17,842 bases of DNA from a virus (lineage: Duplodnaviria > Heunggongvirae > Uroviricota > Caudoviricetes): positions 1-17,842 of the IMG/VR virus record IMGVR_UViG_2703718801_000005. The stretch is one strand, 5' to 3'. Made by a program: the position numbers. This document shows positions 12,001-15,000 of this stretch, one piece after another (positions within the stretch are counted from its first letter, which is position 1; each line of letters begins with the position of its first letter).

Positions 12001-15000
12001 CACACTCCTCGGCGAGCGGGTGATGGACCGTATGACCATGAACGGTGGTCGTTGGGTGAATTTTAACTGGGAGAGCTGGCGGTCAAACGTTGGGCGTCAG
12101 GGTATGTGAGAATTTTTGACGAGGTAAATTTTCGATGGAAACCGTATTGCATGCACTGAAAGCGATGGGTAAAGCCAATTCTGTTGAACTGGCGGCGCGG
12201 CTTGATATCAGCCGTGAAGAAGTTCTCAACGAACTGTGGGAACTCAAAAAAAATGGTGTTGTTGATAAAACGGGTCACACCTGGTTTCTGGCTGTCGAAG
12301 GTGAATCCGGGGTAACCGAAGGGCAGGCACTACAATCTGAAGCGCCGGATGTGGTAACCGAAGAGGTCGCTCCAAAAGTTAGCGCTGACATGATGATTGA
12401 GTTTATCGCTCAGGAGGGGGCTAAAACCTGTGAAGAAATAGCGGGTAAGTTCGGAGTTACCACTCGTAAGGTTGCTTCCACTTTGGCGGTAGTAACAGCA
12501 ACGGGGCGCCTGGTGCGCGTGTCTATCAAGGGAAAATTCCGTTATAAAGTGCCTGACGTCGAAAACGGCGATTTGAGCGCGTCATCATCGCAGGATGAGA
12601 ATATCACACACGAAGCAGAAAACAGCGCGTCAGGCGACGAACTGAATCGTTTTCCGTTGATGTCAGAGGGCACGGCAAAGGCCTGTACAGATGAGTTTAT
12701 CCGGGATGTTCCGTCGTTCACCGAAAAATATGCTGGTGCAGTGACCCTTCCACCTCTACGGGCCGCCAGTCGTGAACTTCGTCGCGCCAAAAAACAGGTC
12801 CAGAAGTGGGAGCGTGTCTGTGCTGCACTACGTGAGCTGAATAAACACCGGGAACTTGTCATGCAGATTACCGATTCATCCAGCAGTATTGCATCGGAAA
12901 AGTGATAACTGGAGAGCTTATGGCAAAAGTATTTACACCCGAACAGCGGGAAGAACTGAAGGCACGTATTGTGGAGCTCGTGCGCCTGAATGGTCGGGGA
13001 ACGTTCAGGCAACTGGCTACTGAAACCGGAGTCAGCAAGACAGCTGTCAGACGTTTGTCCAGAGAACTGGTTGTCAGTGGCGCTATATTCGACTCAGGTT
13101 ATGGTTTATTCCCGTCTGATCAGGCGCGTAAGGACTGGCAAAATGCCCGCAAAAAACTCTCGAGAGCAAAGGCAAAGAAACCGGTTGTTATTGACCCTGG
13201 TCTTATCCGGGCATTACCTGATGGGGAAATCCGGCGCTACGACAGACGCTACAACATAATTTGTCGCGAGTGCCGTAACAGCGAAACGATGCAGCGTGTG
13301 CTGGCATTCTGGCGGGGGAGTGCAGAGGGATTGATGTTCTCCCCGTCGTGAATGACGGGGGCTTACGTGTTCAGAAAAGTGATTCATATAGAGGCTGAAT
13401 CTGATCTTTTTTGTTCACGTCTGGCTGCCACCATTGCAGGCAGAGTGAAGGCGTAGACTAAAAACATTTCGGTAAAACTCAGGATCTGGCTTGCCTCAAT
13501 TGGTGTGAAAACTTCATCTGTATGAACTGCTTTATTGGCATCAATTCGTACAATATGAGCCCATTCCTTCATCTGTTCAGTGATCAGCCCTTTTTTGTAA
13601 ATCATCTGAATACGTTGCGACAGCGATTCTTTTCCTGCTTCATCGCCGAGCAGTTTTTTCGTGGAGATATCGAGGACTCTGCGACAAAGAATTACCACTG
13701 TGTCGTACCGCCTCCTCTGTAAATCCTCTTTTGCCTCAACAAAAGTACGGTCTGCAACCGGGGGCGTATATTCTGGTGCGGTAATTTTTTTGACCGCAGG
13801 ATAGATCTTGCGGAAACGGTACTGGCTATTTCCTGAAATCAGAATATCGAGGTCTTTTTTCTGGCTTTCCGCCATGGGGCCGTGATAGTGGTCTGATGGG
13901 ATTTCAACAATAGCAACACCTCCTCGATGACAACTTCTGCATACAAAAGCGACGTTAAAAAGAGGTGTTTTTTCAATTTGTTTTTCGGCAAATGCCTCAA
14001 TAACAGCTCGCTCTTTTAAACAGTGTGGGCATGTAATGTCAAAGGAGACTAAACTCATGGATATTCCTCTCGAAATTAAAGAAATTAACGAAATCATTGA
14101 GGTTACTGATCGCCCCGAGTTTACCCTCATGCGTCGTTATGAAACAGGAACCGACGAACAAAAATACATCATGGTTGCAGCATTGGCTGTGATGGCGATA
14201 GAAAGGGAGCGGAGGGAAAAGGACGTAATGGTTATTCCGGCGAGAAATGATTCACCGGATTTGAGATGGCAGGATCCGGAGTGGGATGTGGCAATCCGGT
14301 GATTGATATTTCTCTGGGGTAAAGCGCCGCCAGAATGACGGCGCGGTGGTTAAGCATGAGGCGAAATTTCTGCCGGGCGGTATTTTGTTGAGAGATGAGA
14401 TACGTCAACTTCTCTTTCCGCTTTTTCAAGGCTCCATGCCGTCTGGAGACGAATCCATGAAGACGGAGTTCCACCCAGGACAGCAGCGAGACGAACAGCC
14501 ATTTCAGGAGATATTGTCGCATTACCTGAAACCAGTCGCTGAACAGTGGAAGGCGCGACATCAAGCGCTCTTGCCAGTTCCCTGATTCCAATATTCTGAT
14601 CTTCCAGAATATCAGCAATAATTTCTCCGGGATGAGGGGGGTTAAACATCGCCATTAGTGGTAATCCTCGTAGTTAAGAATATAAGCATCGCCGTTCCGA
14701 AACTCGAATGTGATTCTCCAGTTACCGGAGACGGTGACAGACCATGTATCGGATCTGTCACCCTGCAACTGGTGCAGCCTGTACCCGGCAAGGTTAATAT
14801 CATCAATGATTTCAGCTTGATCTATTACCTGAAGGCGCGTTCTCAGGCGTTTAACGTGATTGGGATTTACGCCTGATGCATTTCCTGTTTCAAAGAAACG
14901 TTGAAGTCCTTTGTGTTTCCAGCTTTTTATCATGCTTGTTTCCTGTTGCGTTACGCGAATCATTATAGCAGGTGTTGTGATGTACGCAACACTGAATTTG

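Follow-up and report, generated by a model that had tools for sequence, protein, structure and literature searches.

A predicted Rts1-type HigB/HigA toxin-antitoxin cassette in the nin region of an Stx1a lambdoid prophage

Introduction

What kind of gene pair lies at 14350-14992 of the virus record IMGVR_UViG_2703718801_000005, how is it controlled, and what would it do for the phage that carries it? The window, i.e. the whole stretch of DNA analysed here, comprises positions 1 to 17,842 of this record (17,842 nucleotides, nt; Caudoviricetes). A preliminary description, made from the sequence alone, had placed at 14350-14992 a toxin-first HigB/HigA toxin-antitoxin (TA) pair with its own promoter and operator; the elements of that description are all present there, on the minus strand. 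We conclude with high confidence that higB and higA make up a canonical type II TA operon of the Rts1 type, a self-contained accessory cassette (minus strand, ~14324-14992) carried in the nin region of a Shiga toxin 1a (Stx1a) lambdoid prophage. Among our results none contradicted the HigB/HigA identity. The pair is not new: both genes are already named in RefSeq and PHROGs, and a GenBank phage record, GER2, likewise names HigB. In the literature we found no paper on this particular higBA copy.

Results

Identity of the toxin and the antitoxin

Profile searches bore out the proposed families of both proteins, with scores above the curated cut-offs. The toxin covers the full PF05015 (HigB-like_toxin) profile (1-91/91) at 76.7 bits against a gathering cut-off of 27, and the antitoxin scores 88.4 bits against the NCBIfam equivalog TIGR02607 (antidote_HigA, cut-off 47.7) and 39.7 bits against PF01381 (HTH_3, cut-off 23). 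The toxin gene higB (14655..14933, minus strand; supported by PF05015, the alignment with Rts1 HigB and RefSeq) encodes 92 amino acids (aa) and is located before higA (14350..14655, minus strand; supported by TIGR02607, PF01381, PDB matches and RefSeq), which encodes a 101-aa helix-turn-helix protein of the XRE type (HTH-XRE). The higB stop and the higA ATG share one base (TAATG), so that the toxin-first order with overlapping stop and start was read correctly in the preliminary description. The same -1 spacing of toxin stop and antitoxin start was observed in most of 80 relatives. These are loci of other species with a gene for a relative of the window HigB, and we also examined in them the region 5' of each start codon. 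From this arrangement we read the two genes as translationally coupled. In PHROGs, higB falls under 'toxin of TA system' and higA under 'plasmid antitoxin with HTH domain'; both groups belong to the moron category.

The start of the toxin needs a correction, from 102 to 92 aa. The longer, 102-aa open reading frame (ORF) begins at the first ATG (14655..14963, minus strand, start at 14963). We rejected this start: the PF05015 match sets in only at residue 13 of that ORF, a length of 92 aa prevails among the best 120 homologues listed, and the ATG at 14963 lies inside the -10 box, upstream of any transcript from the higBA promoter. The RefSeq toxin coding sequence is 279 nt long, and its product, WP_000597785.1, is identical to the 92-aa HigB. 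A Shine-Dalgarno sequence AGGA (14941..14944, minus strand, read from the sequence) is positioned 7 nt 5' of the second ATG, and the block around it, CGCAACAGGAAACA, is kept in the Escherichia coli and Salmonella relatives. The true toxin start is almost certainly this second ATG at 14933.

The closest known system is the founding 'host inhibition of growth' pair of the Proteus vulgaris plasmid Rts1 (PDB 4MCT, 4MCX, 4PX8, 4YPB, 6CHV, 9CHL), which is likewise toxin first and has a HigB of 92 aa. The window HigB aligns with Rts1 HigB (PDB 4MCT/4PX8) end to end without gaps, with 56/92 residues identical (61%, E 3e-32). In this alignment the catalytic and recognition residues H54, N71, R73, D90, Y91 and H92 are unchanged, and K57 and R69 of Rts1 HigB are replaced by Q and S. 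The roles of the residues other than H54 are reportedly described in Schureck et al. 2015/2016. Rts1 HigB cleaves mRNA on the translating ribosome and is inactive as the H54A variant (PMC12266136). The window HigA (RefSeq WP_001240641.1) shares the HTH-XRE fold with Rts1 HigA (PDB 4MCX/6CHV; E 1e-19, 35/87 identical, 40%) and differs in its recognition helix, APSTVQRLVSG here vs TPATVSRLLAG in Rts1. Its closest solved structure is PDB 2ICP, deposited as 'antitoxin higa' (E 8e-28, 45/89 identical); 2ICP and 2ICT, which we take to be from E. coli CFT073, belong to the same TIGR02607 fold family and have a different recognition helix (APSTASRLLTG). PADLOC gave weak generic HTH matches for HigA, with E 3e-4 or weaker.

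Two further known systems were compared. GraT-GraA of Pseudomonas putida (PDB 6F8S, 6F8H) has the PF05015 and HigA-type families and the toxin-first order in common with the locus but is far more distant (HigB match E 6.7e-5), whereas the window HigB aligns over its whole length with the Rts1 type. GraT, which has a disordered N-terminus, displaces GraA from DNA, and HigB can bind operator-bound HigA (PMC12266136). The toxin-antitoxin-chaperone systems of the HigBA-SecB type, for which a preprint reports an anti-phage role (bioRxiv 10.1101/2024.02.24.581848), share the HigBA-type pair, but no chaperone gene is present at our locus: directly 3' of higA there are only a terminator-like hairpin and a convergent 81-aa ORF. 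HigA ends at 101 aa.

Comparison of the window with a 92.6%-identical E. coli variant gave ratios of nonsynonymous to synonymous polymorphism (pN/pS) of 0.08 for higB and 0.13 for higA, which indicates that both genes are under purifying selection. The antisense ORFs at 14346-14585 and 14658-14876 (plus strand) were taken as spurious, since the opposite strand is coding under such selection. The higBA pair is probably functional.

Promoter and operators of higBA

In the sense of the gene, the DNA upstream of higB reads ...TTGTCAAATTCA GTGTTGCG TACAT CACAACAC CTGC TATAAT GATTCGCGTAACGCAACAGGAAACAAGC ATG. The perfect TATAAT noted in the preliminary description is present at 14962-14967 and is preceded by TG, which together form an extended -10 element, TGCTATAAT (14962..14970, minus strand). 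The motif TGnTATAAT occurs only once in the 17.8-kb window, both strands considered; this is not significant by itself, since 57/200 shuffles contain at least one occurrence. At the same position, an alignment of the upstream regions of 18 relatives, anchored at the ATG, contains a TAnnnT element. The -35 element, TTGCGT (14984..14989, minus strand, read from the sequence), matches the consensus in 3/6 positions, is separated from the -10 by a 16-bp spacer and lies within the first of the operators described below. Because of this poor -35 the consensus promoter scan did not report the higBA promoter and returned only a promoter on the opposite strand. The hexamer TTGTCA (14998-15003, higBA strand) was considered as a strong -35 and rejected; at 31 bp from the -10 it is too distant. 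The higBA promoter is thus best described as a predicted promoter of the extended -10 type.

Two inverted repeats cover this promoter. Operator O1 (14972..14992, minus strand) is a 21-bp repeat of the 8-5-8 form, GTGTTGCG-TACAT-CACAACAC, with arms complementary at 7/8 positions, and overlaps the -35. The 6-bp-arm repeat that had been noticed over the -35 (GTGTTG/CAACAC, 14972-14977 / 14987-14992) is indeed there and constitutes the core of O1. Operator O2, ATGATTCG-CGTAA-CGCAACAG (14943..14963, minus strand), extends over the end of the -10 and the predicted transcription start. Among 8-5-8 palindromes in the 90 nt 5' of higB, O1 and O2 rank highest. When the window was scanned for the operator consensus of the clade, TGTTGCG-N5-CGCAACA, the best match was O1 (1 mismatch), and 14944-14962 in O2 matched with 2 mismatches, 29 bp apart from it; at up to 3 mismatches the scan gave 4 matches against 1.1 expected by chance. 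Operator-like sequences at 13262-13280 and 16503-16521 (2 mismatches each) were set aside as chance level.

The main evidence for these repeats is comparative. Enterobacterial relatives (Yersinia, Rahnella, Pantoea, Buttiauxella, Citrobacter, Salmonella) have two 8-5-8 palindromes, one at about -60 and one near -31 relative to the ATG, spaced by ~29-30 bp. In Rahnella they read GTGTTGCG-gctta-CGCAACAC and CTGTTGCG-taagc-CGCAACAC, the second corresponding in position to O2. Across the 18 aligned relatives the invariant columns are the half-site cores (GTTGC, ACA, G, G.AAC) and the start codon, and no spacer column is conserved; within O1 the invariant cores are GTTGC and AACA. In E. coli and Salmonella copies that are almost identical, the arms of O1 are fixed and the spacer between them reads TACAT, CATTA, AATGA, CATAA or CATCT. 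Among the relatives, the left and right halves of the second palindrome co-vary (TGTTCC..GGAACA vs TGTTGCG..CGCAACA). The half-site moreover tracks the recognition helix of HigA: TGTTGCG is found with APST(V/A)(Q/S)R, TATTACA with TPATVSR, the Rts1-type helix, and GTAAC with SRKTLS.

The layout is that of the Rts1 promoter Phig, which is repressed through two inverted-repeat operators of 21 nt; O1 covers the -35, O2 the -10, and each takes one HigA dimer, with no cooperativity (PMC12266136). We made the operator comparison with Rts1 through a Providencia locus (L063) whose HigA equals Rts1 HigA over the 55 aligned residues compared. A pair of 21-bp operator palindromes, covering the -35 and the -10, is thus common to both systems, which differ in the half-site, TGTTGCG here vs TATTACA in the Proteus/Providencia clade. 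There is good comparative evidence that O1 and O2 are HigA operators serving autoregulation. The autoregulatory repeat proposed in the preliminary description therefore stands as a putative HigA operator, and its single-operator model was dropped in favour of two operators after the comparison of the 80 loci.

Carrier prophage, extent of the cassette and distribution

The chromosome of E. coli OkiPb01683 is 100% identical to the window over 99% of the window length, and in this strain the window corresponds to the left half of a lambdoid, Stx1a-converting prophage integrated at ynfG/ynfH. Unlike Rts1 HigBA, which is carried by a plasmid, the pair is therefore carried here by a prophage. The prophage encodes, in this order, integrase, exo/bet/gam/RecE, repressor/cro/cII, replication genes, DUF1627, DUF977, a DUF4145 gene (minus strand), the 81-aa ORF (plus strand), higA-higB (minus strand), two antirepressor genes (plus strand), ninB...Q and stx1. 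By RefSeq gene order higBA is located between the replication genes and ninB, as expected from the proposed nin-region position, and on the minus strand it opposes the phage early-right operon.

The cassette moves as a unit among unrelated phage backbones, with homology breaking within a few bases of O1 on one side and at the terminator-like hairpin on the other. This GC-rich hairpin (14324..14344, minus strand) lies just 3' of the higA stop, between convergent genes, and consists of a 9-bp stem followed by UUUA; RNA folding gave -19.3 kcal/mol with z -2.8. The terminator scan, which demands a longer T run, did not call it. Homology with PA2-type phages begins at 14325, at this hairpin.

Intact higB is rare. 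We found it in 22/5426 complete E. coli genomes and in 1/50,697 phage records (GER2, annotated 'plasmid maintenance system killer HigB'), and higA in 68 complete E. coli genomes. Elsewhere, relatives of the toxin are common, with 550 plasmid records and 1533 protein clusters. Of the related Stx phages, most have lost higB and carry higA as an orphan. In many Stx2a/Stx1a phage records that carry higA (PA2, VT2phi_272, F765 and others) no higB was detected. In the two cases examined, PA2 (L002 4026-5003) and E. coli O22:H8 strain 154 (L087 17339-18317), a ParD/ribbon-helix-helix antitoxin-like gene and a small lipoprotein-like gene take the place of higB with its promoter and operators, and ~25 nt of the higB 3' end are retained together with an intact higA. 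Two orphan antitoxins thus adjoin each other there with no toxin. On the window's own backbone, homology to the higB-less phages breaks at 14677, within higB. The orphan HigA and the ParD-like antitoxin may be decay products or decoys against host TA-based defence.

Divergent IsrK, C4 and antirepressor module

The 310-bp stretch that separates higB from the next gene carries RNA genes on the plus strand. The promoter scan identified a near-consensus IsrK promoter (TTGACA-18-TATATT, 14998-15027), followed by the small RNA (sRNA) IsrK (15034-15110; Rfam, 74.7 bits vs a cut-off of 50) with an intrinsic terminator found by the terminator scan (15089-15105), and a C4-type RNA (15136-15219; Rfam, 66.7 bits vs 45). 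A small ORF (15102-15275) has a stop codon overlapping the ATG (ATGA) of an antirepressor gene with ORF6N/P22_AR_C profile matches (15272-15994). Downstream, sRNA-Xcc1 (16118-16207; 67.5 bits vs 53) is located 5' of a second antirepressor/BRO-family gene (16249-16893), all on the plus strand, so that the prophage has two tandem sRNA-led antirepressor units before ninB. The module at 14998-15994 is immI-like and mirrors isrK-orf45-anrP of Salmonella Gifsy-1, in which IsrK activates antirepressor translation (PMC4825925).

The promoters of higBA and IsrK stand back to back: 5 bp separate the end of O1 from the IsrK -35. All of the 22 complete E. coli genomes with higB match at least 80% of a 971-bp query containing higBA and the IsrK/C4 leader, and Rfam confirmed IsrK and C4 RNA in the window, in FDAARGOS_944 and in GER2. 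Beyond these genomes the two parts separate. IsrK is absent from the Salmonella prophage relatives (HigB 84% and 80% identical), which retain O1/O2; the IsrK/C4 leader was found in 0/80 chromosomal relatives of HigB; and sister E. coli prophages keep IsrK and C4 with higB and its operators gone. An obligate link of higBA and IsrK was rejected, each occurring without the other in relatives. Since the Salmonella and chromosomal relatives lack IsrK and the sister phages have IsrK without higB, the higBA/IsrK junction looks like a mosaic joint and not a co-evolved unit. The homology of the window higBA with the Salmonella copies stops at about 14998-15007. This end coincides with the hexamer TTGTCA/TTGACA, i.e. 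the IsrK -35, where the higB-less phages have TTGACG; the end of the higBA cassette appears to supply, or to coincide with, the -35 of the IsrK promoter.

Neighbouring genes and the defence-island question

The preliminary description had placed higBA next to a zinc-ribbon gene pair. We found a single gene with this feature, located at 13384-14058 on the minus strand (224 aa by RefSeq; longer ORF 13384-14130), which encodes a Cys4 zinc ribbon joined to a DUF4145/HEPN domain; the adjoining 81-aa ORF (phrog_8371, 14057-14302, ORF 14036-14302, plus strand) has no cysteines. In 30 homologues of the former protein, C10, C13, C40 and C43 of the N-terminal zinc ribbon and a motif R171-x7-H179 are invariant, and PF13643 (DUF4145) matches with 36.6 bits (cut-off 23.1). 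The spacing of the motif equals that of R146/H154 in RAZR (PD-T7-4), an abortive-infection RNase activated by assembly around phage ring proteins (PMC13017515). Matches to RAZR are weak at the sequence level: the PADLOC PD-T7-4 model gave E 1.5e-3 and 16 bits, and a profile of the protein aligned the R..H motif with PDB 9y9c (24 chains, 'DUF4145 domain-containing protein') at E 0.074. A single-sequence search of the PDB gave no match. For the AlphaFold model (predicted local distance difference test score, pLDDT, 89.6) the best Foldseek matches were the HEPN proteins 1o3u and 7ae6; the search returned generic HEPN folds and not the RAZR entry. 7AE6 is a comparator in the RAZR paper (PMC13017515). 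By architecture and motif spacing the gene at 13384-14058 is a RAZR-like candidate defence gene. It is divergent from the 81-aa ORF, and the annotated 5' ends overlap by 2 nt (14057/14058), so that the promoter of each gene must fall inside the coding sequence of the other.

Further to the left, the DUF977 gene (12902-13351, plus strand) matches the PHROG 'Ren-like exclusion protein' (E 1.9e-40), and the DUF1627 gene (12135-12905, plus strand) matches the same PHROG weakly; these two may be additional exclusion genes where the accessory region begins. In Salmonella enterica prophages (L088, L090; 1700-8300), higBA relatives (HigB 84% identical) are located beside the Q antiterminator in a hotspot with HicAB, a second HigBA, a YoeB remnant, Phd-PIN, ParE-PaaA2 and a PLD-family nuclease. 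In another Salmonella relative (L091) the pair adjoins a P22-type sar RNA/arc/Bro-N antirepressor region. The left neighbours of higBA vary by phage, with NinE or an antirepressor in place of the RAZR-like gene. Thus the defence island proposed in the preliminary description is plausible and only in part supported: the RAZR-like neighbour, with its weak homology, and the Salmonella TA hotspots agree with it, but the left neighbours are not conserved and no PADLOC family matches HigB. The region can fairly be called an accessory or defence hotspot.

Discussion

We infer toxicity, neutralisation, DNA binding and HigA lability from the Rts1 system. By this analogy the 92-aa HigB would be a RelE-fold, ribosome-dependent mRNA endonuclease, and the 101-aa HigA would act as an HTH-XRE dimer that binds and neutralises it. 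HigA alone, or a HigB2-HigA2 complex, would sit on O1 at the -35 and on O2 at -10/+1 and repress the extended -10 promoter. A lysogen should express the cassette, given that it is transcribed against the early-right operon. If HigA synthesis stopped or HigA was degraded, HigB would be freed and translation would be arrested.

Several observations count against this picture, though not against the identity of the pair. Among the PADLOC families there is no match for HigB. The higBA promoter has a poor -35, other E. coli variants do not keep the TG of the extended -10, and O2 has a degenerate left half, with 5/8 positions complementary; promoter strength and O2 occupancy are for these reasons uncertain. 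The hairpin at 14324-14344 has a short U tract. Moreover, 46/68 complete E. coli genomes with higA show no megablast-detectable higB, so that these phages can dispense with the toxin, which may even be costly to them. The profile scores, the gapless alignment with Rts1 HigB and the conserved operator layout support the assignment to this family.

As for the biological role, we rank addiction or selfish maintenance and phage exclusion about equally. If the cassette stabilises its carrier, loss of the prophage would leave the longer-lived HigB to kill or arrest the cell; equivalently, higBA would be a selfish passenger that is hard to lose. We propose this role tentatively. It is in line with the plasmid-encoded founding system of Rts1 (PMC12266136), with the 550 plasmid records that encode relatives and with the travel of the cassette as a unit among unrelated backbones, but common sister prophages with the same backbone have cleanly lost higB and the promoter (higA in 68 genomes vs higB in 22), and loss of higB that is so common in them implies that it is tolerated once HigA is kept. 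Phage exclusion is possible, with some doubt: in this abortive-infection scenario an infecting phage would shut off host transcription, labile HigA would decay and HigB would halt translation before the phage cycle is completed, the pair forming a small defence cluster with its neighbours. The adjoining gene with the invariant Cys4 and R-x7-H of RAZR/PD-T7-4, its weak matches to the PD-T7-4 model and 9y9c and its HEPN-like predicted fold point to such a cluster, RAZR being an experimentally shown abortive-infection RNase (PMC13017515), and so do the DUF977 gene in the Ren-like PHROG, the multi-TA hotspots of the Salmonella relatives and the anti-phage role that a preprint reports for HigBA-type toxin-antitoxin-chaperone systems (bioRxiv 10.1101/2024.02.24.581848). 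The link of the neighbour to RAZR is, however, below significance at the sequence level, HigB is without a PADLOC family, the literature search gave no paper on this locus, and the cluster is not a conserved unit, because the left neighbours of higBA differ among phages.

A third proposal seems to us highly improbable, namely that HigA at O1 also influences the divergent IsrK promoter and so couples the TA state to the IsrK/C4/antirepressor switch. HigA or HigBA at O1 could then, at the same slight probability, set the levels of the IsrK sRNA and of the read-through IsrK-C4-antirepressor transcript. The back-to-back position of O1 and the IsrK promoter (14998-15027, plus strand), the match of all 22 higB genomes to the joint 971-bp query and the control of antirepressor translation by IsrK in Gifsy-1 (PMC4825925) speak for it, and the Salmonella prophages that hold O1/O2 without IsrK, the 80 chromosomal relatives, none with the IsrK/C4 leader, and the E. 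coli sister phages that have IsrK and C4 without higB or operators speak against it. In view of this mosaic evidence, both cross-talk of HigA with IsrK and a decoy role of the orphan antitoxin are unlikely. If the coupling were true, loss of HigA through stress or proteolysis would release HigB and simultaneously drive the prophage towards induction by the antirepressor.

To return to the Rts1-type TA cassette as such, it is on its own of little weight, being one more HigBA cassette and an ordinary member of the best-studied HigBA family. Comparing the relatives defines, for a so far unstudied HigA clade, the operator code: two copies of TGTTGCG-N5-CGCAACA, one over the -35 and one over the -10. 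In Stx prophages the nin region emerges as a swap site at which TA cargo, sRNA-controlled antirepressors and a RAZR-like candidate defence gene are exchanged. Furthermore, the intact toxin is rare, with 22/5426 complete E. coli genomes, and the orphan antitoxin is three times as common in Stx phages, which could interest work on TA decay and anti-defence.

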